Below are positions 12,127-64,000 of a stretch of 64,000 nucleotides of DNA, in pieces. This DNA is from Dehalococcoidia bacterium. Its GTDB lineage: Bacteria > Chloroflexota > Dehalococcoidia > DSTF01 > WHTK01. The stretch covers positions 2,018,884 to 2,082,883 of the forward strand of contig OZ252017.1 in NCBI GenBank assembly GCA_965247485.1. Reading direction: 5' to 3'. The notes under the pieces are model-generated. The model worked only from the letters and a program-made list of their open reading frames with translations. It was not told the origin of the DNA and ran no database searches. The translations under genes were made by a program, and so were the position numbers. Positions within the stretch are counted from its first letter, which is position 1. Every line of letters starts with the position of its first letter.

Positions 12127-12833
12127 TCAAGACGACCTGATCAGGTCTTTTGCCAAACCAACGACTTTTACGAGCTTCGGGACCCTCCTCTTGGGAGGAG
12201 GCGGTATCGAGCGGAGCTTATCGAAGCCATAAGCGCATCCATCCGCGGCGACGTACTTGGAGTCGCGGAAATAGCCCCAGAGGCTCATGAATTGGAAGCC
12301 CTCATCGATCTCACGAATCCCGAGTTGGCGAAGCCAAGACAGCGCCTTGTCCACTGGCGTCAACGACAAAACGGCAGGTAATCTCACCAGTTTCATCGTT
12401 CTCCACGGTAGAGCGGAAGCTAATGCGCGAATCGGCGTCGCCACCGAGGGTTGTGGCGGTGACGGCGGTCTGTTCGAAAACTTGGGCGGGCGTGATCCAG
12501 AAGGATTTGGTCGATGCGGTCGCGTTCGACATGCAGCGCCGGGCGTTGGTAGCCAAAGTCGCTGAAACGCATTTGCCGGATAGTGTCGTTCCAAATCACG
12601 GTGCCACCGGCCTTCTGGATAAAGCCTTCAGCATCGATCTTGTCAGACACACCGCTCAGGTCAGCGTACTTCCAGAAGTGAGGAATCAGGCTCTCGCCAA
12701 CGACAAAGCGCGGATGTTTTTCCTTTTCAAGCAGGACAACGTCGTAGCCCTTTTGGGCCAGCAGGGTTGCAGCCGTGCTGCCGGCCGGTCCGCCACCAAT
12801 CACGACGACATCGGAGCGTGTTGGGATTTTCAT
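12127..12833 (-). pseudogene. FAD-dependent oxidoreductase, flavin-dependent halogenase-like N-terminus (GxGxxG, GESLIP, DASG motifs), broken by two frameshifts and short
   Basis: ORF 12420..12833 carries VVVIGGGPAGSTAATLLAQKGYDVVLLEKEKHPRFVVGESLIP. It continues in a second frame (ORF 12311..12556: …CRFVVDASGQGAVLA…) and a third frame (ORF 12127..12594 C-terminal part). The combined length is ~235 aa, well below the 400-500 aa expected. Confidence 0.45.
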
Positions 12834-12988
12834 GGCTGCTTTAATCGTACATGGGTTGGAGGGTTCCGGGTAGCAAGCCGGCTATGGCACCTGAGACGGG
12901 GCCCAAGAGATCGTCAACCTGACCCCATTTCTCGGACCGAACTCGCGCGTGATTTGAATCAAGCAAGCATGATCTGTATAAACTTGAG

Positions 12989-13273
12989 TTGTTAGTGCTT
13001 CGTCAGACTCGGGGAGAGGTCATGACTACAACCAATCCAGAAGAATCATTGCGCAGCTTCATTGTGGCGGAGTTTGGTCACAAGCTGGAGAGTCCGGATT
13101 TTAGCGCTAACCTGGACCTGCTCGGAGAAGGGGTGATTGACTCGATGGGAGTCATGCAAATCACAACCTTCTTGGAGGAGGAGCTGGGGCTAACAGTGGA
13201 TGACAGCGATATCGTGCCCGATAACTTCCGCTCGCTGGAGTCACTGATCGGATTCGTGCACTCTAAAACTTAG
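12989..13273 (+). CDS. Acyl/peptidyl carrier protein (ACP-like)
   Basis: The …LGEGVIDSMGVMQITTFLEEELGL… segment fits the phosphopantetheine attachment context (DSM/DSL Ser). The likely start is the ATG at 13022 (MTTTNPEES…). No cognate synthase is nearby. Confidence 0.5.
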   Translation: MLVLRQTRGEVMTTTNPEESLRSFIVAEFGHKLESPDFSANLDLLGEGVIDSMGVMQITTFLEEELGLTVDDSDIVPDNFRSLESLIGFVHSKT

Positions 13274-13391
13274 CAGCGGGACGAAAGGCCAACGCGGCCC
13301 GCTCAGGTGGCACTGGAGAGAACCTATCGAGCCGAACTGCCGGTCTGTTCTCTATTGAGCCGATAATTTGTGTCGATGGCTGCTGCTGCTG

Positions 13392-16472: not shown

Positions 16473-17585
16473 CTAGGTCAGCGGGTTAATCCAGACCAGC
16501 AGAATAAAGAAGCAGGCCAAAGCAGCCAATGGCCACTCTGGAAGCGGCGTGAACTTGGGCAGGCGGGTCAATGGGACCGACTGTAACACCGTTGAAAATG
16601 TCCGCGGCAACACCACCCATAGGGCAACAAAAGCAACTCCCGCGTAGAGCCAACCCAGGACAATGTCAACCAAGTAGTGCTCGCCCAAATACACGAATGA
16701 GACGCTCCCCAGGCCGGCGTAGACCAGGACCGGAAGGCCCCGCCATCGCCAAATGTCGATGCTGATGAAGGCGAGAAGTAGCGGCAAGGCGGCATGCAAA
16801 GAAGGGACGGCCGCCACCTCGTTGGGGCTGAAATGTTTGAAGGCGAATGCCAGCGGTTCAGTTTCAGGCAGACTCGCCAGGGTCAGAAGGTAGACCCGGT
16901 CGATCTGTGGAATCAGCCCCTGCTGGCTTGCCATCCAGGGAGGGGCCGCCGGGTACAGGTAGTAGGTCAAGAATGCCGCGAAGAAGAGCCCGAGCAGCGG
17001 GACGGCGAAGCGCCAGAACGCGGCGCGGCCGCTCATCCAGAAGTAGAAGGCGAATGCCGTTGGGACAACGAAGTGAGCCAGGTAAAGAAGAGTCGTAAGC
17101 CAGTCCAACCATGAAACGGTGCCTTGCACGAAAAACCAGTCTTGAAGAATTTCCGGCGCGCTTCGGCTGCTCCCCAACAGCCAACTATCCGCATCGATCA
17201 ACTCCTGGAAGTGGACGGATGAGCTCAAGTCATCGGCAATGCCGCGGAAGCCTTCGTAGATCAGAATCAACAGGAGAAACGGCGTCCAGTCGATAACGAA
17301 ACGCCATCCACGTCCGACAAACACAGCGATCAAGAGCAGTGGCGGGATCAGGAAATCCGGCGTCGGCCAACCACCGCGGCTTGCCAAAACAGCCCCGCCG
17401 AAAATCAGATAGCCTATCGCCACTGCCGAGGCCAGGAAGCGCGTGCGAGCGGCGGTAGCCCAATCTCCGGTCGCTGATAAAACTTGGTTAGGCTTGGTCA
17501 GATCCTCGATCGGTCTCTCCCGCTCAGCCATTTTGCATGCGGCCCATTTCGCATCCGGATTGTAAAGGTTGCGCCGGCCGATCAA
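16473..17585 (-). CDS. PAP2-superfamily integral membrane protein (phosphatase / inositol-phosphorylceramide-synthase-like)
   Basis: 370 aa and polytopic. It has PAP2 motif-2-like PSLHAA and motif-3-like HYLVD (SRx5Hx3D). Confidence 0.5.
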   Translation of the reverse strand: MIGRRNLYNPDAKWAACKMAERERPIEDLTKPNQVLSATGDWATAARTRFLASAVAIGYLIFGGAVLASRGGWPTPDFLIPPLLLIAVFVGRGWRFVIDWTPFLLLILIYEGFRGIADDLSSSVHFQELIDADSWLLGSSRSAPEILQDWFFVQGTVSWLDWLTTLLYLAHFVVPTAFAFYFWMSGRAAFWRFAVPLLGLFFAAFLTYYLYPAAPPWMASQQGLIPQIDRVYLLTLASLPETEPLAFAFKHFSPNEVAAVPSLHAALPLLLAFISIDIWRWRGLPVLVYAGLGSVSFVYLGEHYLVDIVLGWLYAGVAFVALWVVLPRTFSTVLQSVPLTRLPKFTPLPEWPLAALACFFILLVWINPLT

Positions 17586-38792: not shown

Positions 38793-40811
38793 CTAGCCGC
38801 GTTCTTGAGCTTGTTTCGCCACCGCTTGAGCGCGCTCCACAACCCTGTCAGGCGTAAACCCGAAGCGTTCAAAGAGAACTCCGCCAGGCGCCGATGCCCC
38901 GAAGTGGTCGAGGCCGATCATGCCTCCGCCTTCTCCCACGTACCGTTCCCATCCCAGGGTTGAGCCAGCCTCAATCGATACTCTCGCCGCAATCGCCGAT
39001 GGCAGCACCTGGTTCTTGTATTCCTGAGGCTGTTCTTCAAATACTTCCCAACTTGGCATGCTGACCACGCGTGCATCGAGCCCCTGGTTGGTCAGGAGTT
39101 CTCGGGACCGCAGAGCGAGAGCCACTTCAGATCCGGTTGCAATGAGAATGACGTCGGGCTTTCCCGACGCGGCCTCTTCAACGATGTAGGCGCCGCGTTC
39201 GACGCCAACCTGTACTCTTGGGGCGTCGTCGATGATTGGCAGGTTCTGGCGGGTAAGGACGAGGAGGGATGGGCCTCTGCGCTTAATCATCAATCGCCAA
39301 GCGGCGGTAGTCTCGTTGGCATCGGCGGGGCGGAAAACAGTCAAGTTGGGCATCGCCCTGAGCGACGCCAGGTGCTCAACCGGCTGGTGGGTGGGGCCAT
39401 CCTCCCCAAGCCCGATGCTGTCGTGCGTGAGGACAAACATTGATTGAATGTTCATAAGCGCCGCCAGTCTGATGGCCGGCCGCATATAGTCGGTGAATAT
39501 GAAAAACGTTGCCCCAAAGGGAATGACGCCCCCGTGCAGGCTCATGCCGTTGACGATGGCACCCATGGCGTGTTCGCGCACACCAAAGTGAAGGTTGCGG
39601 GCACCCCAGGTGCCGGCATTGATGTCGCCGAGTCCCGTTAGGTCGGTCATGGTGGATGGGGCGAGGTCCGCAGAGCCCCCGAGCAGAGTCGGCAGTCTCT
39701 GAACGGCGGCGTTCAAGACCTTACCGGAGGCTATGCGGGTCGCAATCGGGCCGTCCTTCTCGGTGAAGGCTGGAAGCCCAGCATCCCAGTCTGCCGGGAG
39801 TTCTCCCCGCAGCACCTCCTGGAAGAGGTTTGCATCCTCCGGATAGGCCTCCGCATAAGCGGCCACGCGTTCTTGCCAGTCGCGTTCCCGCTCCTTGCCG
39901 TCGTCGATCGCCGAGCGCATCTCGGCCAGGGTTTCCTCCGGCACGAGGAAGGGTGGCTCTGTCGGCCAGCCAAGGGCTTCCTTGGTGAGCAGCACTTCGG
40001 CTTCGCCCAGCGCGGCGCCGTGCGCTTCGGCCGTTCCGGCTTTGTTGGGGCTGCCAAAAGCAATCGTCGTCTTGGCGGCGATCAAAGACGGCTGAGATGT
40101 CTCAGCCTTGGCTTCCTCCAGGGCGGCGATGACAGCGTCGAGATCGTTGCCATCGACTCGCTGGACGTGCCAGCCGAGCGCCTGGAAGCGGTCGCCGACG
40201 TTTTCGGTGAAGGCGAGATCGGTGCTGCCTTCGATGGTTATGCTGTTGTCGTCGTAGAGGTAGATGAGCTTACCCAGGCCCAGGGTACCGGCCAGCGAGG
40301 CAGCTTCATGGGCAACGCCTTCCATCAAATCGCCGTCGCTGACGATGCCGTACACGTAGTGATCGACGATCTGGTGACCGGGACGATTGAAGCGCTCGGC
40401 CAGGAAGCGCTCGGCCAGCGCCATCCCCACGCCCATCGCAAATCCCTGCCCCAGAGGCCCGGTTGTGGCCTCAACTCCCGGCGTGAGGTGATACTCGGGA
40501 TGGCCCGGAGTTTTACTGTCCCACTTGCGAAACGCTTTGATTTCGTCGAGTGACAGCTCATAGCCGGTGAGATGAAGGAGTGAATAGAGCAAGACTGATG
40601 CATGCCCCGCCGAAAGGACGAAGCGGTCACGGTTGGGCCAGTCTGGGTTTGTCGGACTGTGGCGGAGAACGCGGGCCCATAGAGCATAGGCCATCGTCGC
40701 CGCGCCCATAGCTGTGCCGGGGTGGCCATTACCCGCTTTTTGGACCGCGTCCATAGCCAGGGCTCGAATCGTATTGATGCAGAGCTCGTCGGTCTTGCTA
40801 AGAGATACCAC
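38793..40811 (-). CDS. tkt: Transketolase
   Basis: 672 aa with the TPP-binding motif (GDGDLMEG…) and the full three-domain architecture. Confidence 0.9.
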
Positions 40812-41643
40812 GTATGGTCCTTTCGAATTCGACTATTGTGCTTCGGCAATCAAGAGCGGTACCTGACGGCTTAGATCCGCGGGGACCAGCCCAGAAGGCA
40901 GATCTGAAGGCCGCCGCTTCAGATATGGTACTGGCTAGCCGGAGGCGACGGCTTGGATTTGGATTTCTAATGGCAAAACCTGCGGCAGGACCGCTTCCCT
41001 GTCCCCGACCTTTTCGTTTGGCTGGCTGGTGGTCTTTCATTCTACTTGGAGGACGCTTGGCCAGTTCCGAGAACGCGCCGCCCCGATGTATCGGCCGCGG
41101 GTCCGAATGATATGGGTGCCTCCGACGAGGATGGTGAGCGTGGCACAGGTGATCACAAACGGCAGTGATTAGGGTGAGAAGGTTTAGCAGGACAAAGCCG
41201 ACGATCGCGCCAAGAACCACGCTTCGGGATAGGGCGATAACGCCCAGAGCCGGCAATATGGCTAGCATGGTGAGAATCGGCAGCATCGCCAGGGAAACGC
41301 CGAGCACTGGCGCCAGGCCCCTGCCGCCTTGAAACTGAAGTACGGCGGGCCAGTTGTGGCCGATTGTGAGTGCGACCGGTGCGCTAAATACGGTCCATTC
41401 CGCTAACCCGGACCAAAGCGCGGCAACGACGACCACCGTCCCCTTGGCGATGTCAGCGCCCAAGACCAAGACGCCGGCGCGCCCGCCAAGCTCCCGAAAC
41501 ACGTTTAGGGCGCCGGCGTTGTGACTACCGACATTGCGAATATCGACGTCTTTGACACGCCTGGCTACCAGATAAGCGGGGGAAAGTGAGCCGAGAGCGT
41601 AAGCGGCCGCCAGGAACATGGTGCCCAGGAATACCTCAACCAT
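40798..41643 (-). CDS. plsY: Glycerol-3-phosphate acyltransferase PlsY with an anomalous ~70-aa low-complexity C-terminal extension
   Basis: The N-terminal ~205 aa match PlsY (…[10 protein letters not shown]…[19 protein letters not shown]…DIAKG…). The C-terminus (…[22 protein letters not shown]…RRLRLAS…) is unlike PlsY and runs to the tkt overlap. Confidence 0.6.
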
Positions 41644-48742: not shown

Positions 48743-51700
48743 TTATCTGTCGTAGTTGAGATTGGGCGCCAGCCAGCGCTCCATCTCCGGCAGTTCCATT
48801 CTCTTTCGTTGAGCGTAGTCCGCTACTTGGTCGGGCTCGATGCGACCCAACCCGAAATACTGCGCCTCTGGACGCCAGAAGTAGTAGCCACTCACGGCCG
48901 CGGTTGGCGTCATGGCGAAACTCTCGGTGAGCGCTAGCCCAATCCGCTCCGTGACTTCGAGCAATTCGAAGATCGTCTGCTTCTCGGTGTGGTCAGGACA
49001 GGCGGGGTAGCCTGGGGCCGGCCGAATTCCCTGGTACTGCTCGTGAATGAGTTCGTCGTTGCTAAAGCTCTCGTCAGTTGCATAGCCCCATAGCTCGCGG
49101 CGAGTCAACTCGTGCATCCTCTCGGCAAGAGCTTCTGCTAGACGGTCGGCCAATGCCTTGACCAAGATCGCGTTGTAATCATCCTGATCCGCTTCAAACT
49201 CAGCCACCTTCTGGTCCAGGCCGATTCCGGCGGTCACCGCAAACATTCCCAACCAATCTGCCGTGACGGATTCTGCCGGAGAGACGAAGTCAGCCAGGGC
49301 AAGGTTTGGGCTGCTGTTGCTCTTCACCATCTGTTGGCGAAGCGTGTGGATCACCGTCAGGGGAGTCGCGTCAGACTTCTGCTCTTCCGGAGTGTTCCAC
49401 ACCAGAATGTCCTCGGCGCCGTCTGAATTGGCTGGGAAGAATCCCACCACCGCTCGGGCTTCGAGCCATTTTTCCGCCACTACTTGGTCCAGCATCGCCT
49501 TTGCGTCGGCGAACAGTGAACTGGCGCTTTCGCCAACCCTGGGGTCAGCCAAAATCTCTGGATAGTGTCCCGCCAGTTCCCAGGTTTGGAAAAACGGGGT
49601 CCAATCAATTCGATCCACTAGTTCGGCCAATGGGAACTCGGTGAAGGTGCGCACGCCGGTAAAGCTTGGCGGTGGTGCGGCAACAACCGAGGCCAGTTCT
49701 AGCTTGTTGGCGCGAGCCTCCGCGAAAGTCTGACGGCGTTGATTCCGTTGTTGGCTAGCTCGCCGCTCGCGGACCTCCTCGTACTCGCTACGAACATTCT
49801 CGACAAACTCGTCGTGCCGAGTATCCGAAAACAGTGAACTTGCGACGTTGACGGCCCTGGAAGCGTCGGTGACGTAGACCACCGGTCCCGTATAATTGGG
49901 CGCAATCTTGACCGCCGTGTGGGCTTTCGAGGTTGTGGCGCCACCGATCAGCAGCGGGATTCTCAACCCTTCGGCCTCCATCTCGCCGGCGACATAGGCC
50001 ATCTCTTCAAGCGAAGGCGTGATCAAACCGGATAGACCGATCGCATCCACCTGCTCCAGGGCAGCAGTCTCCTTGATCTTTGACCATGGCGTCATTACGC
50101 CCATGTCGATCACATCGTAGTTGTTGCACTGCAAGACGACGCTGACGATATTTTTGCCAATGTCGTGCACATCGCCCTTGACCGTTGCCAGCAGAATCTT
50201 TCCCTTGGATCCGGAACCAACGGATTTCCTCTCCTCGATGTAGGGCACCAGGTGCGCAACCGCGCGTTTCATCACGCGCGCGCTCTTGACAACCTGGGGC
50301 AGAAACATTTTTCCGCTGCCAAACAGATCGCCAACCACGTTCATCCCCTCCATCAGGGGACCTTCAATGACCTCAATCGGCTCTTCGACCTGCTGGCGTG
50401 CCTCCTCGGCGTCCTCCACGACAAATTCGTCGATGCCGTGCACCAAAGCGTAGCTCAGGCGCTCGCGAACCGGTAGGCTCCGCCATTCCAGGTTCGCCGC
50501 TTCTTTCGGGCCGCGACCCTGGACCGTATCGGCAATGGCCAAGAGCCTATCGGTGGCGTCGGGACGCCGGTTGAGAACCAGATCTTCAACTCTCTCCAGC
50601 AGGTCCGGGGGAATATCGTCATAGAGCGTCAAAGAACCGGCGTTGACAATACCCATGTCCATGCCGGCGGCAATCGCATGGTAGAGGAACACGGCGTGAA
50701 TTGCCTCTCGTAGCTGATTGTTGCCGCGAAACGCGAAACTGACGTTGCTCACGCCTCCCGAAATCTTCACGTCTGGCAAAGTTTTCTTGATCAGGCGTGT
50801 CGCCTCGAAGAAATTCAGCGCATATCCATTGTGCTCTTCGATTCCGGTGCCAATTGCAAAGATGTTTGGATCGAAGATGATGTCTTCGCCCGGGAAGTCT
50901 GCTTGCTGCGTGAGGACATGGTAGGCGCGTGTGCAGATTTCTACCTTGCGCTCAACGGTATCGGCCTGACCTTCCTCATCGAAAGCCATCACGATCGCGG
51001 CTGCCCCGTAGCGTCGTACTAGCTTGGCCTGGCGCAAGAATTCTGTCTCACCCTCTTTTAGCGAGATCGAGTTAACGATGCTCTTGCCTTGCAGACACTT
51101 AAGCCCGGCTTCTATTACCGTCCATTTTGACGAGTCGACCATGAAGGGAACGCGGGATATGTCTGGCTCCGCCGCAGCCAATTTAAGGAACTTGTCCATT
51201 GCCTCGGCAGAATCCAACATGCCTTCATCGAAGTTAACGTCGATGATGACCGCCCCGGCTTCGATCTGCTGGAGCGCCACATTCAGCGCCGCCTGATAGT
51301 CGCCGCCTAGCACAAGCTTTTTGAAACGCGAGGAGCCGGTGACGTTGGTGCGTTCGCCAATGTTGACGAAGTTTGAATCAGGCCCAATGGTTAGCGGTTC
51401 AAGCCCAGACAGTTGGAACTTGCTGCTTCGGCTGGGTAACTGGCGCGGCTGCAAGTCTCGAACCGCGGTGGCGATCGCGCCAATGTGCGCGGGCGTGGTT
51501 CCGCAGCACCCTCCGACGATGTTCAGAAGGCCGGCTTCGGCAAACTCGCGTAGAACTGCCGATGTGTATTCAGCTGTCTCGTCGTAGCCGCCCATTTCAT
51601 TGGGCAGACCCGCGTTCGGATGGACGCTTATGCGGCAGGGTGCAATTCTGGCCAGCTCTTGAACGTATGGACGTAGATCCTTCGCTCCTAGCGCACAATT

Positions 51701-52459
51701 GAGCCCAATAGAAATTGGACGGGCATGGGCGATCGCGTTGAAAAACGCTTCCGTGGTCTGGCCCGACAAGGTTCGTCCGCTGAGATCTGTGATTGTGCCG
51801 GAGATCATCAGCGGAAGCCGGATACCGGCTGCCTCAAAGGCTTCTTCGATTGCAAAGATCGCCGCCTTGGCGTTTAACGTGTCAAAGATTGTTTCCATCA
51901 ATAGCATGTCGGCGCCGCTGGTTATCAGTGCGTCGGCTTCCTCGCGGTAAGCGAGCACCAACTCATCAAAGGTGACATTGCGATAACCAGGGTCGTCCAC
52001 GCGTGGCGAGATCGTCGCGGTCCGGTTTGTCGGCCCCAAGACTCCAGCCACAAAGCGCGGTTTCCCGTCCCTGGCTTCGAATTCATCTGCCACCGATCTG
52101 GCGAGTTCTGCTCCGGCCTGGTTCTGCTCGAACGCCAGGGCCTCCGTCCCGTAGTCCGACATGGAGATGCGGGTAGATGTAAACGTGTTTGTCTTGACGA
52201 TGTCGGCGCCGGCCTCGAGGTAGGCGACGTGAATTGCCCGAATCACCTCGGGATTGCTCAATTGAAGCAGGTCGTTGTTGCCGCGTAAGTCTTGCGGCCA
52301 ATCGGAAAACCGCTCGCCACGAAAACCAGCCTCATCCAGCTGCAGCTTCTGAATCTCTGTGCCCATCGGCCCGTCCAGGACCAGGATGCGCTGCTCCAGC
52401 AGCGCATCGAGGCCAGCCAGTCGTTCGTCTCTAGTGAAGATGGTTGATGTGGTCATCAA
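48743..52459 (-). CDS. metH: Cobalamin-dependent methionine synthase
   Basis: 1238 aa with all four modules (Hcy-binding, pterin-binding, B12-binding with the DxHxxG region, AdoMet reactivation). Confidence 0.9.
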
Positions 52460-53358
52460 ACCGTTTCCTTTGAGACCGCGTTAGGACGGAGTCCCAAAAT
52501 GTGGCAGATGGCGAAGGTGAGGTCGGCTCGGTTAAGGGTGTAGAAATGGAACTCGGTGACGCCTTCCTGGGCCAATTCTCGCACCTGTTCGGCCGCGATG
52601 GTCAGGGCCACGGATTGGCGGGTGGATGCATCTTTGTCCAACCCCTCGAAGGCTTTCCAAAGGAATTCAGGGACCGAAGCCCCGGCCTTTTCGGCAAATC
52701 GGGCCGTTTGCTTGAGGTTTGTAATCGGCATGATGCCCGGGACTATCGGTACTGTAATGCCCGCGGCCATGACTTCTTCCCGAAAGCGCAGGAAATTTTC
52801 GTTGTCGAAAAAGAACTGCGTAATTGCCCGTGTTGCTCCGGCATCGATCTTGCGTTTCAAATTCTCGATGTCTTCTTCCGGGGATGGCGCTTCGGGGTGA
52901 CCTTCTGGATGAGCCGCTACCGAAATCTCAAAATCCTGGCGTTTGAGCAGGCCGCGGACAAGATCGGATGCCCGGTTGTATCCGCCGGGATGGGGCGTGT
53001 AGTGCTCTTCACCGCCGGGTGGATCTCCACGCAAGGCGACGATGTGGCGAACGTTGGCTTCCCAGTAATCGTCCGCTACCTCATCAACTTCATCTTGCGT
53101 GGCATCGACACACGTCAGATGCGCGGCCGGAGTCAAAGTCGTTTCGCTGAGGATTCGACGAACAGTCCTGTGGGTATTTTCACGCGTACTTCCACCGGCG
53201 CCGTAGGTTACGGACACGAAATGCGGCGCTAGGGGCTCCAGACGCTTGATAGCAACCCACAAGCTCTCTTCCATCTCCGGTGTCTTGGGCGGAAAAAACT
53301 CGAATGAGACCTGGAATGGCGAGCTATCACCAATTTGCGAACTTAAAAGCTCTTTCAA
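52456..53358 (-). CDS. metF: 5,10-methylenetetrahydrofolate reductase
   Basis: 300 aa MetF fold. TTG start. Overlaps the metH start by 4 bp. Confidence 0.85.
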
Positions 53359-57863: not shown

Positions 57864-58304
57864 ATGGAAGCCGCGGAAATTCAGGTTGAGGCGGAAAAGT
57901 CGGAAGTTTTTCGCAAGCTGACTTCCTTTGCAACTAATAGAGGAAGCATAGGCCCGAAGGTTCTCGTGCGTGAGGAAACCGGCACCCTGCTGGTCGAGTT
58001 CCGTACGGCAGTGACAGGACTTCTTGGCCGCAGGAAGACGCATCGCACGGTGGAAAGGGTCACACTCAGTGAACCGGACCAGATCCTATTCAAGGGCGTC
58101 GAAGGGCCTCTGGACCTCTTGATCGACCGCATATCGCTAATCGCAGCAGCCGGCGGAACGAGAGTGCGTTACGAGAGTACGATTGGACTCAAGGGGTCAG
58201 TATTCGGCTGGCTGATTTGCAGGCTTTACGTCCGGCGCGTCCTCAGCAGATTTATGCAAAAGCATCTGAGTCAGCTCAGGGATTCCCTTGAACGCGACGA
58301 CTAA
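57864..58304 (+). CDS. SRPBCC (polyketide-cyclase/START-like) small protein
   Basis: ATG at 57864 (MEAAEIQVEAEKSEVFRKL…) gives ~147 aa. The fold call is from length and composition only. The ORF-track start at 57723 overlaps the TlpA gene. Confidence 0.4.
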   Translation: MEAAEIQVEAEKSEVFRKLTSFATNRGSIGPKVLVREETGTLLVEFRTAVTGLLGRRKTHRTVERVTLSEPDQILFKGVEGPLDLLIDRISLIAAAGGTRVRYESTIGLKGSVFGWLICRLYVRRVLSRFMQKHLSQLRDSLERDD

Positions 58305-58320
58305 CGCTTCCCGACAGGGA

Positions 58321-58390
58321 GAACCGACGCTGCCGACGCTCCCGGCAAGTGGGCGGCCAGCCGCCTTCATTGCCGGTATTTAGAATAATC
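58321..58390 (+). repeat. Structured repeat, copy D (near-consensus: GAACCGACGCTGCCGACGCTCCCGGCAAGTGGGCGGCCAGCCGCCTTCATTGCCGGTATTTAGAATAATC)
   Basis: Lies 65 bp upstream of the HNH endonuclease ORF. Confidence 0.75.
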
Positions 58391-58454
58391 CGACGCCTCT
58401 CGTATAAGTAGATTCCCTTAGGGCACCAGAGAGGCCTTAAGGATAAACTTAGGC

Positions 58455-58883
58455 TTGATGACCGACTCGGCTGATTCTTGGCGAGCGCATGTGACCTGCG
58501 TCGACCTTTCCCAAGAGGTCTGCCGGCTCGCTAGTTGCCGGCAAGCGCTTCCGGCTCGACGCACCGCATATTGTTCCGATGCGCACGCGCGCGAGTTCGA
58601 GCGTAATCACTTCTGGTCGGCCGCCAGGCGAGCAGCGCGCCGGCGCGCCAAATGGACCTGTGAGAGGTGCAACTTCAAACCCTCTCAAGTCAAGAAAGAC
58701 CCTGTCGCCAAGAGCGCTTACGCAGGTCACGAGTTGAGGCTGCAGGTGAACCATATTGAACCGCTTGCCGGTCGATACCGCTCGATGACCTGTTTTAATC
58801 ATCTGAGCAACCTTGAGGTTCTATGCCATCGCTGTCATGTCTCCGTCACCAGCGAGCAGCGGCAACAGGCCGCTTCTGCTTAG
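58455..58883 (+). CDS. HNH endonuclease (McrA-like small nuclease)
   Basis: 142 aa with a Cys-rich region and HNH motif (…CERCNF…LQVNHIEPL…NLEVLCHRCH…). Confidence 0.6.
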   Translation: MMTDSADSWRAHVTCVDLSQEVCRLASCRQALPARRTAYCSDAHAREFERNHFWSAARRAARRRAKWTCERCNFKPSQVKKDPVAKSAYAGHELRLQVNHIEPLAGRYRSMTCFNHLSNLEVLCHRCHVSVTSEQRQQAASA

Positions 58884-58947
58884 TGCTGAAGCAATGCACT
58901 CATGGAAAGTTAGCGCCGCTGCCACCGCTCCCAAAGCTCGTGACGGC

Positions 58948-59022
58948 GAACAAGCAGACGCTGCTGACGCTCCCGGCAAGTGGACGGCAAGCCGCCTTCA
59001 TTGTCCGGTATTTAAAATAATC
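58948..59022 (+). repeat. Structured repeat, copy E (…GACGCTCCCGGCAAGTGGACGGCAAGCCGCCTTCATTGTCCGGTATTTAAAATAATCC)
   Basis: In tandem with copy F. Confidence 0.75.
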
Positions 59023-59078
59023 CCGACGCTCCCGGCAAGTGGGCGCCTTGGCGCCATCATTGCCTGGTATTTCAAATA
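59023..59078 (+). repeat. Structured repeat, copy F, core only, ending exactly at the ATG of the MFS gene (…GGTATTTCAAATAATG)
   Basis: CGACGCTCCCGGCAAGTGGGCGCCTTGGCGCCATCATTGCCTGGTATTTCAAATA, then ATG at 59079. The inner stem is GGCGC/GCGCC rather than GGCGG/CCGCC (compensatory change). Confidence 0.75.
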
Positions 59079-60341
59079 ATGACCGCCTCAGCCGTTCGGA
59101 GTGCCGGTCGCCGGATTTCTAGTGCTTTCGCGTCTTTGTCCTACAGAGAGTTCCGCCTTCTTTGGTACGGGCAGCTATCGCAGGCCGGTACTTTGTGGGC
59201 CGAGCAGGTGACGCGTAGCTGGCTGGCTTTTGAGCTTACCGGCTCCGCGTTTCAGCTTGGCTTATTGCAGGTCGTGCGGGGCGTCTCCGCGCTCCTCCTT
59301 GGCATGTGGGGTGGAGTTTTAGCAGACCGCTTTGACAAGAAGACCCTGCTAATGGCGACTCAAACCTGGACTTTGATCATCTACGCGGCGCTAGCCGCCG
59401 TGACCTTGAGCAACACCCTGGAGCTATGGCATCTGTACGCGAGTGCCGTCGGGCTTTCGCTGGGTGGAGCAATAAACCAGCCCGTTCGTACCTCAATCAT
59501 CCCTTCCCTCGTGCCAGAGGGCCAAATCCTCAACGCCCTTTCGCTCAATTCCATAGCGATCAACGCCTCTCGGCTTGGCACACCAATCGCGGTAGCCGGC
59601 TTAATCGCTCTTACCGGAAATGGTGGCTGGGGATATGCGATCTGCGCCTTCTTATACGTCCTCATCCTCTGGTTTACTCTGCTGCTTAAACGGCCTGAGG
59701 TCAGTTCGGAAGCAGCCTCGAGGTCGATGGTGAGGTCAATGTGGGAGGGTCTCGCCTTTGTCGGACGCAATCGTCTGATCCTGGCTCACATGATCATCGC
59801 CATGGGGCCGCTTGCCTTTGGGCTCAGCTTTCAGTGGATCCTGGTGGTTTACGCCACAGAAACCCTTGGCCTTGACGTCACTTCCTTCGGCGCGCTGTTC
59901 ACTGCAGGGGGCATAGGTGCGCTCATAGGCGGCGTGATGATCGCTTCGAGTGGCACAAGCACGCGGCAAGGGACCGTCATGCTCGCATCAGGCTTGATCT
60001 ACGGCCTAATGCTCGTGGGAATGGGACTCGTCGGCTTTTTGTCTACCGGCTTACCGCTTTTTTGGTTCGCCGCTCCGTTCATCATGATCATCGGTGCCAG
60101 CCAGTCGATTTTTCGGGCCACCAACAACAGCAGGCTACTCGCACATTCGCCGGCTGAGATGCGTGGCCGCGTAATGGGGTTAACCGTGCCGACCCAGGCG
60201 GTAAACGCCCTCGCGGCTCTTATGGCCGGCGGCATCGCTGAGACGATTAGCCCGGCGTTTGCCATGGGGGCCCTCGGTGCCGCATGCCTTTTGATCGTCC
60301 TGCTGGTTAGCACCTGGGAACCGAGAATCCGCGGCGGCTAG
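59079..60341 (+). CDS. MFS transporter (paralog of the 4221..5471 gene)
   Basis: 420 aa, 12 TM. Conserved …GVLADRFDKKTLLMATQ… region mirrors …GVLADRWDRRKLLMVTQ… at 4221. Confidence 0.8.
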   Translation: MTASAVRSAGRRISSAFASLSYREFRLLWYGQLSQAGTLWAEQVTRSWLAFELTGSAFQLGLLQVVRGVSALLLGMWGGVLADRFDKKTLLMATQTWTLIIYAALAAVTLSNTLELWHLYASAVGLSLGGAINQPVRTSIIPSLVPEGQILNALSLNSIAINASRLGTPIAVAGLIALTGNGGWGYAICAFLYVLILWFTLLLKRPEVSSEAASRSMVRSMWEGLAFVGRNRLILAHMIIAMGPLAFGLSFQWILVVYATETLGLDVTSFGALFTAGGIGALIGGVMIASSGTSTRQGTVMLASGLIYGLMLVGMGLVGFLSTGLPLFWFAAPFIMIIGASQSIFRATNNSRLLAHSPAEMRGRVMGLTVPTQAVNALAALMAGGIAETISPAFAMGALGAACLLIVLLVSTWEPRIRGG

Positions 60342-60419
60342 CTAGCGACTGTCTTCCGGTCGGGTTGGCGGATCAGCCGGCCGCGGCCACCGGTACCGTG
60401 ATGCGTCCCGATACGATGG

Positions 60420-60686
60420 CTAAATACGCGGCGGAAGCCGGTTTTCGCAGTACTGAAATCCCGCCGATTGAGAACTTTCTTTTCCGGTTCTACCGTCTAA
60501 ATCCATAAATCCGGCGCCGGCGATGAGCGAAGCCCCTTTGGCCGGTATTCCAAACAATCTCTCACCTTTTTTCAAATAATCCCTTATGCTGGAATAACTG
60601 GCGTTATCGAGATATGGCCATTGGCCGGCAATCCACTCAATGCCGAGGCTCCGGGCAAGACCCACGGCCATGGTCCGGTACTCCAA
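60420..60686 (-). CDS. Hypothetical 88-aa ORF on the opposite strand between element copies H and G. Possibly a gene remnant.
   Basis: ORF-track only. No recognisable family. It is the only minus-strand ORF in the cassette-like array. Confidence 0.2.
   Translation of the reverse strand: MEYRTMAVGLARSLGIEWIAGQWPYLDNASYSSIRDYLKKGERLFGIPAKGASLIAGAGFMDLDGRTGKESSQSAGFQYCENRLPPRI
60535..60583 (+). repeat. Degenerate partial copy H (…TTTGGCCGGTATTCCAAACAATCTCTCACCTTTTTTCAAATAATCCC)
   Basis: Retains only the GCCGGTATT…AAATAAT tail block. Confidence 0.35.
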
Positions 60687-60693
60687 AACTCAT

Positions 60694-60760
60694 GACGACA
60701 AACAGACGCAGCCGACGCTCCCGGCAAGGCCCATGGCCATTGCCGGTATTTGAAATAATC
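60694..60760 (+). repeat. Structured repeat, copy G, ending 1 nt before the ATG of a small membrane-protein gene (GACGACAAACAGACGCAGCCGACGCTCCCGGCAAGGCCCATGGCCATTGCCGGTATTTGAAATAATC-ATG)
   Basis: The inner hairpin is replaced by GGCC-CAT-GGCC, so the structure is kept with a different sequence. Confidence 0.75.
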
Positions 60761-61114
60761 ATGCTAATCCAGTCTTTCGCAAACGGTAGACTTATAATCG
60801 CCTCTGGCCTCGTTGCCTCTCTGTGTGGGATGCTTCTGGGATTCGGAAGCATGGGCTATAATGCGGTCGCGGACGGTGCCGTCTACACGCTGGTTTCCTG
60901 GGCCCTGATTGCGCCGGTCTGGCTTCTAGCGGCTATCCTCTGGTTTTTTGGTGTCCGCGGCTCCCGTCTTTTTCTAGTCATGCTGCTCTTTGTAGCCTCG
61001 GCTGGCGCAACTTATTATGGCGACGTTTACGGACAGTATCCCGGTCTTTTCCTGATCGGCATATCGATGATTCACGTTGCCTTGAGGGACAGATCGGCCT
61101 ATTCTGTGCCCTAG
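60761..61114 (+). CDS. Small integral membrane protein (4 TM), hypothetical
   Basis: ATG at 60761 immediately after element copy G (MLIQSFANGRLIIASGLVASLCG…). The ORF-track start at 60614 reads through the element. Confidence 0.45.
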   Translation: MLIQSFANGRLIIASGLVASLCGMLLGFGSMGYNAVADGAVYTLVSWALIAPVWLLAAILWFFGVRGSRLFLVMLLFVASAGATYYGDVYGQYPGLFLIGISMIHVALRDRSAYSVP

Positions 61115-61424
61115 TTCTTTGTTAGGTCCTGGTGCGGCTTCGCAGCCAGGGAGGATTGAGACCCATGTATCGACCCACGCCACCGTCGACGACTGGCCAA
61201 ACTGTTTCCACAAAGTCTTTCCCGCTTTTTGCCATCGAGTAGTTGACACTAGCCCTCTAGTTTGGCGTAAAGTGGCCGGAGTTTCTCGGTGGCAGTAAAG
61301 TCGAAAATTAGAAACCGATGGAGAGAAACTTTTTCGTGGGGCGAGTCTCGCAGAGGCGAGACCATTATTCATAAGCCCCAAATCTGTTCTGTCAGTGGAA
61401 TCAAAAACCACTGGAGGGTAAGCC

Positions 61425-63281
61425 GTGTTTGAACGCCGTTTGGAGGCTGAAATGCCTCCGCTATCGAAGTCTACTCTTCGAAAAGCCGTTATTCTTGCCG
61501 CGGGCTCTGGTCAAAGACTGCGACCACTGACCGACAACCAGCCAAAATGTCTCGTTCTGGTTGGCGGAGAATCTATACTCTTCCGCACTCTATCGACCCT
61601 GGTCCAATACGGAATTCGTGAGGTCGTGATCGTTATCGGCCACGAGGGCCAGAAGATCATCGACGCCACCCATGACACATTCCCGGAGCTCCAGGTCACT
61701 TTTGTCTGGGCCAAGCGCTATGAGACGACGAATAATATTTGCTCCCTCTGGGAGGCTCGCGATCACTGCGACGAAGATATCCTGCTCATTGAGAGTGACG
61801 TAGTTTTTGAAGGCGAGGTGCTGCGTCGAATGCTTGAAGTCGATGGCAATGCGATGGCGATCGCGCCCCATCGAAGCTGGCTTTCGGGCACAGTGGTGCG
61901 AACATCCGAAGACCGCAACGTCACGTCCATGTTCCTCGGCTCTGACCAGGACGCGGCTTTTCGCTACGACGACACATTTAAGACCGCCAATATTTACCGC
62001 CTGGAGAAGAGATTCTTGGCTGAACGCTATATCCCAGCCCTCTGTGACGAGGTTGCCCAGGGCAACGTGGACTCCTACTACGAGTCTATTCTTAGGGACT
62101 TGATGGCCTCCGGCGAGGCTGACTTCACCAGCGTGGATATTGGCGACCGCCTCTGGTACGAGGTAGACGACGAGAAAGACCTCAAGGCCGCCGAAAAGCT
62201 CTTTGCGCCTCCACAACAACGACTGGACAACGTCCTAAAGCTCCATGGCAGCTATTGGCGCTACGGATTCACGGACCATTCCTATCTCTACAATCTCTAC
62301 TTCCCGCCCGAAGAAATGCTGCGGCTTTTCCAGCAAGATTTACGTGACATAATTAACAACTATCCGGTTGGGCAGGATGAGCTGTGTGCCCTCGTGAGTG
62401 CTTGGACTGGTGCGCCGGCAGAGCAAATCACCGTGGCCAATGGCGCTTCCGAACTGATCAAGATTTTGGGTCGTGAACTGGATGGCCCGCTGACAATTCC
62501 GGTACCTTCCTTCAATGAGTACGAAAACGTAATTCAGCCCCAATTGTTGAACCGCTTTTACCTTGACCAGTCCAGCTTTGACCTCGACGTCGAGGCGTTT
62601 GCCGATTCCGCTATTCGTTCCCGCTCCAAGATGGCGATAGTTGTGACCCCGAATAATCCGACATCGCTATCGGTGCCCAAAAAGGATCTGCTTTATCTGG
62701 CTGAGAAACTGCGAAAGAATGACTGCCTGCTGATCGTCGACGAATCTTTCGTCGAATTCTCTTGCACAGGGGTGGAACAGAGCGTTCAACCACATCTCGC
62801 GGAACACGAAAACCTCGTGCTGATGAAAAGCATGAGCAAGGTTTTCGGCATCGCCGGCCTTCGGATCGGCTACGCCCTGTCTTCAGATTCCAGCGTCACT
62901 GAGCAGTTTCGCCGTGAGGTGCCAATTTGGAATATCAACGGTTTGGCGGAAGCGTTCTTGCGCTCGATCGGCGAATTTAAGCAGGAATTTTTCGATAGCT
63001 GTGAGCGCGTCAAGGCTGATCGAGACGATCTCTACGACATGCTGCTGGCGACGCCGGGCATTCAGCCCTACAGGCCCGACGCAAACTTCATTTTCGCCAA
63101 AATCAACCACGCGGCTCTCACCGGGCCTGACCTGGTGAAACGACTCTTCGTTGAGCAGAATATCCTCGTCAAAGATTGCGCGGGGAAATCGATGAAGGAC
63201 GCGGACCGCTTTGTTCGCATCGCTTCGCGGACGCCGGCAGAGAACCAGAAACTTGTGGAGGCGTTTCGACGACTCGACTAG
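61425..63281 (+). CDS. Bifunctional fusion: N-terminal sugar/alcohol-phosphate nucleotidyl(cytidylyl)transferase (LicC/PntC-like) plus C-terminal class I/II PLP-dependent enzyme (HisC/CobD-like aminotransferase or decarboxylase)
   Basis: N-terminus AVILAAGSGQRLRPLT…KCLVLV (NTP-transferase G-x-G-x-R-L signature). C-terminus …VVTPNNPTS…SMSKVFGIAGLRIGY… (PLP-lysine context of the HisC/CobD family). 618 aa. Confidence 0.65.
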   Translation: MFERRLEAEMPPLSKSTLRKAVILAAGSGQRLRPLTDNQPKCLVLVGGESILFRTLSTLVQYGIREVVIVIGHEGQKIIDATHDTFPELQVTFVWAKRYETTNNICSLWEARDHCDEDILLIESDVVFEGEVLRRMLEVDGNAMAIAPHRSWLSGTVVRTSEDRNVTSMFLGSDQDAAFRYDDTFKTANIYRLEKRFLAERYIPALCDEVAQGNVDSYYESILRDLMASGEADFTSVDIGDRLWYEVDDEKDLKAAEKLFAPPQQRLDNVLKLHGSYWRYGFTDHSYLYNLYFPPEEMLRLFQQDLRDIINNYPVGQDELCALVSAWTGAPAEQITVANGASELIKILGRELDGPLTIPVPSFNEYENVIQPQLLNRFYLDQSSFDLDVEAFADSAIRSRSKMAIVVTPNNPTSLSVPKKDLLYLAEKLRKNDCLLIVDESFVEFSCTGVEQSVQPHLAEHENLVLMKSMSKVFGIAGLRIGYALSSDSSVTEQFRREVPIWNINGLAEAFLRSIGEFKQEFFDSCERVKADRDDLYDMLLATPGIQPYRPDANFIFAKINHAALTGPDLVKRLFVEQNILVKDCAGKSMKDADRFVRIASRTPAENQKLVEAFRRLD

Positions 63282-63295
63282 CAGATGACAAGGGC

Positions 63296-63919
63296 TTGGG
63301 AAAGCCCATTGTTGGTCATTTCTGGGACGCGGCAAACCTGCTCTCCCTTGCCGGTCTGCTTAGTAGCACGATGGCCCTGGGCTTTGCTCTAAACCATCGC
63401 TTTGAGTTGGTGGGCGTTTGCCTCATTTTGGCGTTCTTGGCCGACGTTTACGATGGCTGGGTGGCTAGGAGACTAAAAGGCCGCACCGAGCTCGACAAAG
63501 CCTTTGGCGCCAACCTAGACTCACTAATCGACGTCATTGGCGCCGGCGTTCTGCCCGGTGTCGTTCTTCTCAGCCTTGGCGCTTTCCAGGGCTGGTATCT
63601 CCCCGGCGCATTTATGCTGGTTGCCGCCGCGACGATGCGCTTGAGCTTCTTCAACGTGCATGGCTTTGGCGCCGAGAAGACCCACTATACCGGCTTGCCC
63701 ACCGACCTGGTAATTCTCGCTTTTACCGTCATGATGTTGACGGAGGAGATACTCTCTCTGGAGCAGTTCCGCATCGCGCTCTATGCTGGCGCTGTTCTCC
63801 TCGCGGGGCTAATGGTCAGCCCTTTCCAAATCCGAAAACTTGAAGGCTCCTGGTATTATGCGCTGCCCGTAATCGCTGCTGTCGTCGGTCTCACGCACGC
63901 TGCAAGGCTGCTGAATTAG
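63296..63919 (+). CDS. CDP-alcohol phosphatidyltransferase family membrane protein
   Basis: Motif DVYDGWVARRLKGRTELDKAFGANLDSLID (DG…AR…G…D…D) plus multiple TM helices. The start is probably TTG ~63296 after the upstream stop. The ORF-track start at 63176 overlaps the fusion gene. Confidence 0.6.
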   Translation: MGKPIVGHFWDAANLLSLAGLLSSTMALGFALNHRFELVGVCLILAFLADVYDGWVARRLKGRTELDKAFGANLDSLIDVIGAGVLPGVVLLSLGAFQGWYLPGAFMLVAAATMRLSFFNVHGFGAEKTHYTGLPTDLVILAFTVMMLTEEILSLEQFRIALYAGAVLLAGLMVSPFQIRKLEGSWYYALPVIAAVVGLTHAARLLN

Positions 63920-64000
63920 GGTTGCGGGCGCACCAGATAGAAGTGGTTCTGGAGATGCGGCCAGGACACACCCAGCTTACGTAGAATCATCGGCGTCAAC

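Follow-up and report, generated by a model that had tools for sequence, protein, structure and literature searches.

A candidate head-group module

What would a bacterium make with an enzyme that joins a cytidylyltransferase to a pyridoxal 5'-phosphate (PLP) enzyme in one chain, encoded directly before a cytidine diphosphate (CDP)-alcohol phosphotransferase? The question is raised by the 3' end of a 64,000-nucleotide stretch of chromosomal DNA, here called the window, of contig OZ252017.1 (positions 2,018,884 to 2,082,883, forward strand) from the assembly GCA_965247485.1 of an uncultured Dehalococcoidia (Chloroflexota) bacterium. Gene 1 (61425..63281, +) is a 618-aa open reading frame (ORF) whose Pfam and NCBIfam domains give a nucleotidyltransferase::PLP enzyme fusion of FrbH-like architecture. 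It is followed by gene 2 (63296..63919, +; 207 aa; PF01066), a predicted CDP-alcohol phosphotransferase resembling small PssA-like membrane enzymes, and by the 3' end of a class I S-adenosylmethionine (SAM) methyltransferase gene on the opposite strand (63916-63999, −; last 27 codons and stop). We give somewhat better than an even chance to the reading that these three genes form a head-group module, leading from phosphoserine through CDP-ethanolamine to a phosphoethanolamine lipid which may be N-methylated. We infer every substrate and product, the order of the steps, the acceptor lipid and the target of the methyltransferase.

In the proposed route, the substrate of gene 1 would be a phospho-amino acid from central metabolism, with O-phospho-L-serine the likeliest; the N-terminal domain would join this to cytidine monophosphate (CMP) from cytidine triphosphate (CTP), and the PLP domain would take off the carboxyl group, giving CDP-ethanolamine. 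Were cytidylylation to come first, as in FrbH, the intermediate would be CDP-serine. Gene 2 would then move phosphoethanolamine from CDP-ethanolamine to a lipid alcohol, most simply diacylglycerol, in a Kennedy-type reaction yielding phosphatidylethanolamine (PE). The methyltransferase would probably N-methylate the head group, as CDP-ethanolamine or on the lipid, to give methyl-PE or phosphatidylcholine (PC).

An earlier note on this DNA had described a LicC/PntC-like nucleotidyltransferase fused to a PLP enzyme with a CDP-alcohol phosphatidyltransferase next to it, and this description is borne out by the ORFs at these coordinates and by Pfam domains scoring above their cutoffs. It had overlooked the methyltransferase that runs into the end of the window, the LicD-linked second form of the module and the precedent of FrbH.

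The only characterised enzyme with the architecture of the fusion is FrbH, from the FR-900098 pathway of Streptomyces rubellomurinus, a single chain of ~600 aa with an N-terminal PF12804-type cytidylyltransferase and a C-terminal PLP decarboxylase domain, which turns 2-amino-4-phosphonobutyrate and CTP into CMP-3-aminopropylphosphonate (PMC6697681, PMC8007912). Its essential lysine K38 is matched by K41 of the window protein, and lysines K458, K568 and K573 are described in its PLP domain (PMC6697681, PMC8007912). As in the route proposed here, the substrate of FrbH is an alpha-amino acid with a terminal phosph(on)ate and its product a CMP-linked amine; on chemical grounds, that substrate would be the C-P isostere of O-phosphoserine. 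FrbH differs in acting on a phosphonate within an antibiotic cluster that contains ppm, whereas the window family lacks nearby phosphonate genes and is coupled to envelope-building phosphotransferases.

Domains of the fusion protein

The N-terminal LicC/PntC-type cytidylyltransferase domain (61476..62219, +; aa 18-265) matches NTP_transferase and NTP_transf_3 over aa 20-150 (PF00483 and PF12804, E 6e-14 and 4e-12, above Pfam cutoffs), and its nearest relatives in the Protein Data Bank (PDB) are LicC (1jyk) and PntC (6pd1). It carries the nucleotidyltransferase signature G27xGxR31x8P40K41 (G27-S-G-Q-R31...P40-K41), of which R31, P40 and K41 occur in at least 90% of family members. At the positions that contact the substrate amine, E123 aligns with PntC E104 and E220 with PntC E196, and both are invariant in the fusion family. 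In PntC these two glutamates hydrogen-bond the small primary amine of 2-aminoethylphosphonate (AEP), and LicC has Asp at both positions, with room for choline (PMC6697681). The pocket of the fusion is predicted to be PntC-like and suited to a small primary amine. Phosphoethanolamine is the O-ester analogue of AEP and fits the same pocket.

The C-terminal fold-type I PLP domain (62235..63278, +; aa 271-618) was assigned as CobD/SMUL_1544-like by profile search against the PDB and by Foldseek. It matches Aminotran_1_2 over aa 308-614 (PF00155, E 2e-30, above the Pfam cutoff) and contains the Schiff-base lysine K472 (nt 62838-62840, +) in the motif SMSK, whose S469, S471 and K472 do not vary within the family. 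The best NCBIfam model for this part is CobD (TIGR01140, 180 bits against a cutoff of 290), and HisC (TIGR01141) reaches 146 bits against 276; indeed, no curated NCBIfam model scores above its cutoff on either fusion domain. Against the PDB, the family profile gives 166 bits for 6oux, 117 and 103 bits for CobD and 69-86 bits for HisC structures. Foldseek labels 6oux as 'SMUL_1544, a decarboxylase from Sulfurospirillum multivorans', which we take to decarboxylate serine phosphate to ethanolamine phosphate; SMUL_1544 governs norcobamide synthesis. On these profile scores, the PLP domain appears nearest to SMUL_1544/CobD-type decarboxylases and not to HisC. In the AlphaFold 2 model of the fusion, with a mean predicted local distance difference test (pLDDT) score of 79, the best Foldseek superposition of the PLP domain is likewise CobD (1lc7), with a template modelling (TM) score of 0.81 and a root-mean-square deviation (rmsd) of 2.5 Å.

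The earlier note had named two identities that would undo its proposal, a HisC in a his operon for the PLP domain and an ordinary PgsA for gene 2. Both looked for and neither found: the profile scores above place the decarboxylases ahead of HisC, there are no his genes in the fusion neighbourhoods, and gene 2 scores only 17 bits with the PgsA model (TIGR00560, cutoff 109).

A large family in uncultured bacteria

The fusion has 1,981 relatives at E ≤ 1e-10. The best 120 of these are 51-99% identical, nearly all across at least 93% of the query, and an alignment of 15 members has a mean column identity of 64%. Carriers comprise Dehalococcoidia, Tepidiformaceae, Acidimicrobiia and other Actinomycetota, Gammaproteobacteria, Acidobacteriota, Myxococcota, Planctomycetota, Verrucomicrobiota, Bipolaricaulota and Thermotogae. 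Among genome records, those nearest to the fusion gene come from Dehalococcoidia metagenome-assembled genomes (MAGs), at 86% and 68% identity; every record that was traced is a MAG, and cluster look-ups returned generic names and no cultured carrier. The public label on these relatives is 'aminotransferase class I/II-fold PLP-dependent enzyme'. A literature search of limited coverage gave no account of the fusion family, of a bacterial route from phosphoserine to CDP-ethanolamine, or of CDP-serine in such a context. The family is hence large, conserved and undescribed in the literature searched, although its components come from known superfamilies. Polar lipids of cultured Acidimicrobiia include PC and aminophospholipids in some species, which could not be linked to the module.

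Two partner sets around one fusion enzyme

ORFs were called in 80 genome loci, which were searched with the proteins neighbouring the fusion in the window and with iterated profiles. In 26 of the 80 loci the fusion is accompanied by a CDP-alcohol phosphotransferase and a methyltransferase, as in the window, with the transferase lying 0-170 nt past the fusion on the same strand. A further six have the CDP-alcohol phosphotransferase alone; five of these are short contigs and the sixth is locus L009. The largest group (42/80) has a LicD-type phosphotransferase, mostly with an aspartate aminotransferase (AspAT)-like gene before the fusion, all on one strand. No transferase was detected in the remaining six loci, of which L047, L054 and L071 end within 170 nt past the fusion, L044 and L064 are incomplete with type-B gene fragments, and L042 has a methyltransferase adjoining the fusion. 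The two partner sets did not mix in any of the 80 loci, and the apparent exceptions to synteny (L009, L042 and L078) carry divergent copies of partner genes. Adjacency of the fusion and the CDP-alcohol phosphotransferase recurs across many phyla and is not a product of chance. CDP-linked donors are known for both families of transferase.

Beyond these partner sets, no gene family is conserved around the fusion, including a kinase or any other supply gene. This fits phosphoserine as the substrate, because central metabolism already provides it and no dedicated kinase would be needed. Fusions of the two settings have 166 positions in common at ≥90% conservation and differ at five, all conservative swaps. 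The same conserved residues in both settings suggest a single CDP-activated product, so the fusion is most likely one enzyme making one donor for either partner.

In the LicD form, an AspAT-like class I aminotransferase, the fusion and a LicD-like phosphotransferase are packed on one strand (L005, L011-L035 and others; for example L011:9788-12802). This form probably decorates a glycan and not a lipid. Its AspAT-like gene could make phosphoserine from phosphohydroxypyruvate, or could have a PalB-like role.

Some of the loci with a CDP-alcohol phosphotransferase have surroundings of their own. The Chloroflexia locus L009 (8749-14100) has a divergent 324-aa CDP-alcohol phosphotransferase upstream of the fusion and a Lip_A_acyltrans-family lipid acyltransferase and a GNAT protein downstream, a lipid-related setting. 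In L002 (1126-18374), and also in L003 and L004, several rve-type transposase or insertion sequence (IS) genes lie on either side of the methyltransferase-fusion-transferase trio. These IS genes, together with the patchy distribution among phyla, suggest horizontal mobility.

The phosphotransferase, gene 2

Gene 2 matches CDP-OH_P_transf (PF01066) with 51 bits against a cutoff of 22. In NCBIfam its nearest models are archaetidylserine synthase and pssA, neither of which reaches its cutoff: pssA (TIGR00473) gives 63 bits for the window protein and 80 bits for that of L002 against a cutoff of 107, and NF038087 gives 87 bits against 240. Models for Pcs score far lower (28 bits against a cutoff of 350, and 22 against 300). 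The catalytic motif D50xxD53G54xxA57R58...G71xxxD75S76xxD79 (63443..63532, +), read from the sequence and mapped onto the catalytic residues of the archaeal phosphatidylserine synthase MjPSS, is complete, hence the enzyme is predicted to be functional. D50, D53, G54, A57, G71, D75 and D79 are conserved in 14 family members; the position of R58, aligned with MjPSS R49, is K in most members, and the neighbouring R59 is invariant. Between 'AR' and 'G' of the motif (aa 58-71, 63467-63508) gene 2 has 12 residues, compared with eight in MjPSS. The type A transferase family as a whole keeps this four-residue insertion (RTxxD-like), which might be linked to donor specificity.

With respect to polarity, synteny favours transfer from a CDP-alcohol to a lipid alcohol over a reaction of CDP-diacylglycerol with an amino alcohol, since gene 2 comes directly after a cytidylyltransferase and LicD takes its place whenever it is absent.

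Elsewhere in the window, far from the locus, lie two genes of lipid metabolism. One encodes PlsY, the acyl-phosphate:glycerol-3-phosphate acyltransferase (40798-41643, −), so this organism should have acyl-glycerol lipids. The other encodes a 370-aa protein of the PAP2_3 superfamily (16473-17585, −), possibly a phosphatidate phosphatase supplying diacylglycerol.

The methyltransferase

A methyltransferase orthologue adjoins the fusion in 26 of the 32 loci of CDP-alcohol phosphotransferase type, in divergent or convergent orientation, and never occurs with LicD; the orthologues are 50% identical. The top whole-sequence matches are plant phosphoethanolamine N-methyltransferases (PEAMTs; E 7e-23). 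Both the methyltransferase and the PEAMT MT1 domain carry 'LLMYL' and 'RES..YRxP', and the MT1 alignment extends through RES..YRxP. We regard this likeness as suggestive and not specific. The pockets of fusions with and without a methyltransferase are alike, which places methylation after the steps of the fusion, most likely on CDP-ethanolamine or on the lipid.

The window also encodes a cobalamin-dependent MetH of 1,238 aa and a methylenetetrahydrofolate reductase (MTHFR), overlapping by 4 nt (48743-53358, −) about 9 kb upstream of the methyltransferase; their presence there is probably a coincidence.

Weighing the alternatives

Several observations weigh against the route from phosphoserine to a phosphoethanolamine lipid. 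In gene 2, residues of the MjPSS serine pocket (Ser1) S63 and F105 are kept as S76 and F119, and the essential R101 as R115; the family profile of gene 2 found no CEPT1 or CPT1 chain at E ≤ 0.01, and gene 2 could use CDP-diacylglycerol as its donor. By fold, HisC is nearly as close to the PLP domain as CobD is (TM 0.78 against 0.81), and structure prediction with Foldseek did not separate a decarboxylase from HisC, so the case for a decarboxylase over an aminotransferase depends on the profile scores and FrbH, whose likeness to the fusion we draw from its published description. The PEAMT E-value sums two domains, and MT1 alone gives 47.8 bits compared with 62 bits for the generic methyltransferase 1wzn. 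Furthermore, the proposed route does not account for the AspAT-like gene of the LicD form, and a phosphoenolpyruvate (PEP) mutase could be encoded elsewhere in the carrier genomes.

The last two points bear on a phosphonate route, in which the PLP domain would decarboxylate phosphonoalanine, free or CMP-linked, to AEP, the N-terminal domain would make CMP-AEP as PntC does, and gene 2 would form a phosphonolipid. In its favour, both amine-contacting positions hold Glu as in PntC, a PntC-AEPT fusion is the full-length structure that the fusion matches best, and the class I aminotransferase of the LicD form belongs to the same Pfam family as PalB, the maker of phosphonoalanine. However, the same pocket suits phosphoethanolamine, and the PEP-mutase motif EDKxxxxxNS is absent from all ORFs within ±10 kb in 86 of 86 loci. 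Where phosphonate clusters are known, the nucleotidyltransferase mostly forms a fusion with ppm or sits a few genes away; of the nucleotidyltransferase genes closest to ppm, approximately two-thirds are no more than five genes from it. A phosphonate product is thus rather improbable. Of the amino-phosphate or amino-phosphonate head-group module suggested in the earlier note, the logic of making, activating and transferring a head group is supported, and the phosphonate option is not. Its head group was also expected to be unusual, where the evidence points to plain phosphoethanolamine from phosphoserine, perhaps N-methylated. An unusual product, an aminopropanol phospholipid made through CDP-aminopropanol, would follow if the substrate were O-phospho-L-threonine or O-phospho-L-homoserine. 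This we consider unlikely: the O-phospho-L-threonine decarboxylase CobD is both the best NCBIfam model and the best superposition, and phosphohomoserine is likewise a central metabolite, but the family profile prefers SMUL_1544 (166 bits) to the threonine phosphate decarboxylases (117 and 103), the neighbourhoods hold no conserved PduX-type kinase or ThrH-type phosphotransferase, and the substrate of FrbH matches the chain length of phosphoserine.

Gene 2 may instead be a CDP-diacylglycerol-dependent synthase of the PssA kind, acting on serine or another amino alcohol, with the fusion product going to a different acceptor and the adjacency reflecting a shared pathway. MjPSS is the only clear structural relative of gene 2 (E 1e-11 with the family profile), the catalytic, Ser1-pocket and essential arginine residues are conserved, and the best NCBIfam matches point the same way. 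We nevertheless hold this to be an outside chance, as the pssA scores remain below cutoff, the four-residue insertion lies within the motif, and gene 2 follows the fusion by 0-170 nt in 31 loci of several phyla; LicD, a user of CDP-alcohol donors, stands in whenever gene 2 is absent, and a PssA-like role would leave the nucleotidyltransferase domain with no consumer in the locus. It is more doubtful still that the PLP domain is a HisC-kind aminotransferase, which would turn a keto-alcohol phosphate into an amino-alcohol phosphate for cytidylylation (dihydroxyacetone phosphate into serinol phosphate, for example). The superposition with HisC structures is nearly as good as that with CobD and the HisC model reaches 146 bits, yet the family profile prefers decarboxylases by 30-100 bits, FrbH with its identical architecture is a decarboxylase, and the separate upstream aminotransferase of the LicD form fits a transaminase followed by a decarboxylase better than two transaminases. 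A CobY::CobD fusion for assembly of the cobamide nucleotide loop is barely credible. Its similarity to CobD is real, CobY is also a MobA-like NTP transferase and the B12-dependent MetH lies 9 kb upstream, but no cob/cbi genes are conserved around the fusion, whose partners are phosphotransferases and a methyltransferase. The leading NCBIfam matches for the N-terminal domain do not include CobY, and this reading was rejected.

Comparison with known systems

The proposed conversion of phosphoserine to CDP-ethanolamine draws on several known enzymes. CobD and SMUL_1544 are the closest relatives of the PLP domain in sequence and structure, and the chemistry proposed here, from a phospho-amino acid to an amino-alcohol phosphate, is of their kind. 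They are stand-alone enzymes in cob clusters, whereas the fusion domain is joined to a nucleotidyltransferase, scores 180 bits against the CobD cutoff of 290 and has no cob context. The PntC-AEPT fusion Tde1415 and LicC share the nucleotidyltransferase fold and signature, with the Glu-Glu amine pocket shared by PntC; in the PDB, only Tde1415 matches the architecture of the fusion over its full length. It differs in that its PLP domain is a class V transaminase, its domain arrangement is off (rmsd 21 Å) and its locus contains ppm and ppd, while LicC has Asp at both amine-contacting positions and an aromatic box for choline.

In the eukaryotic Kennedy pathway (ECT/CCT and EPT/CPT) and in Treponema LicCA-CPT, diacylglycerol receives a CDP-activated amino alcohol through a CDP-alcohol phosphotransferase. 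The proposed module would follow the same logic, but with a head group derived from decarboxylation of phosphoserine and not from free ethanolamine or choline and a kinase, and with a transferase, gene 2, that is small and PssA-like. A phospho-amino-acid cytidylyltransferase, a phosphotransferase and an N-methyltransferase also stand in one locus in the hypothesised pathway for the Type A glycan of C. difficile flagellin (CD0242, CD0244, CD0243), which differs in its protein-linked GlcNAc acceptor, its lack of a decarboxylase and its TagF-like transferase.

Structure and surroundings of the locus

An exact look-up of the window fusion protein gave no match, so flanking DNA was taken from the contig of P0001, a 99% identical copy of the fusion protein on a metagenomic contig of 1.42 Mb. 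Gene 1 starts with GTG, with GGAGG 8 nt before it. For gene 2, the start is most likely the TTG at 63296, 15 nt past the stop codon of the fusion, because a gene caller placed the start at the corresponding position of the 99%-identical contig and because conservation among homologues begins at K/R-P-I-L/V-G-H; the start of the longest ORF, at 63176, is unlikely. The two genes are tightly linked and probably co-transcribed. The methyltransferase gene converges on gene 2, with a 4-nt overlap at the gene 2 stop codon. Its translated end matches the C-terminus of the protein at 12492-13358 (−) of locus L001; the full methyltransferase has 288 aa, the remainder lying beyond the window.

An Rfam scan of 58000-64000 gave no match, and scans for promoters and terminators near the locus gave matches at chance level. 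A GC-rich stem-loop with a 7-bp stem, GTCTCGCAGAGGCGAGAC, lies at 61345-61362 (+), ~60 nt before the fusion start codon and without a T-run.

Past the 3' end of the window, L001 (13429-19483) carries an aldo-keto reductase, an 835-aa Wzy_C (O-antigen ligase-like) protein, Wzz and a ParA/BY-kinase-like gene, an envelope polysaccharide cluster adjoining the module. At the opposite end of the window, an ATP-grasp L-amino-acid-ligase-like protein (ATP-grasp_4 and LAL_C2; 205-1437, −) adjoins major facilitator superfamily (MFS) transporters and is unrelated to the module.

Implications for bacterial membrane lipids

Textbook synthesis of PE in bacteria proceeds from CDP-diacylglycerol through PssA and Psd, and CDP-ethanolamine routes are regarded as eukaryotic. 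The family may represent an unrecognised, widespread bacterial pathway of the Kennedy type via CDP-serine, leading to PE and methyl-PE or PC in lipids without PssA/Psd, Pmt or Pcs, and to glycans via LicD, with the family ancestral to FrbH; we put this broader proposal at somewhat less than an even chance. Should the module act as we suggest, many uncultured bacteria of at least nine phylum-level groups would make an activated ethanolamine donor from phosphoserine by a single fused enzyme and pass it to lipids or surface glycans, a new pathway in bacterial membrane biochemistry. This would also assign a role to over 1,900 generically labelled proteins and hint at the origin of the phosphonate-antibiotic enzyme FrbH, recruited from primary metabolism. 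For Dehalococcoidia and Acidimicrobiia it would change the reading of lipid biomarkers and metabolic models, and would account for the synthesis of amino-phospholipids in the uncultured members of these and other lineages.

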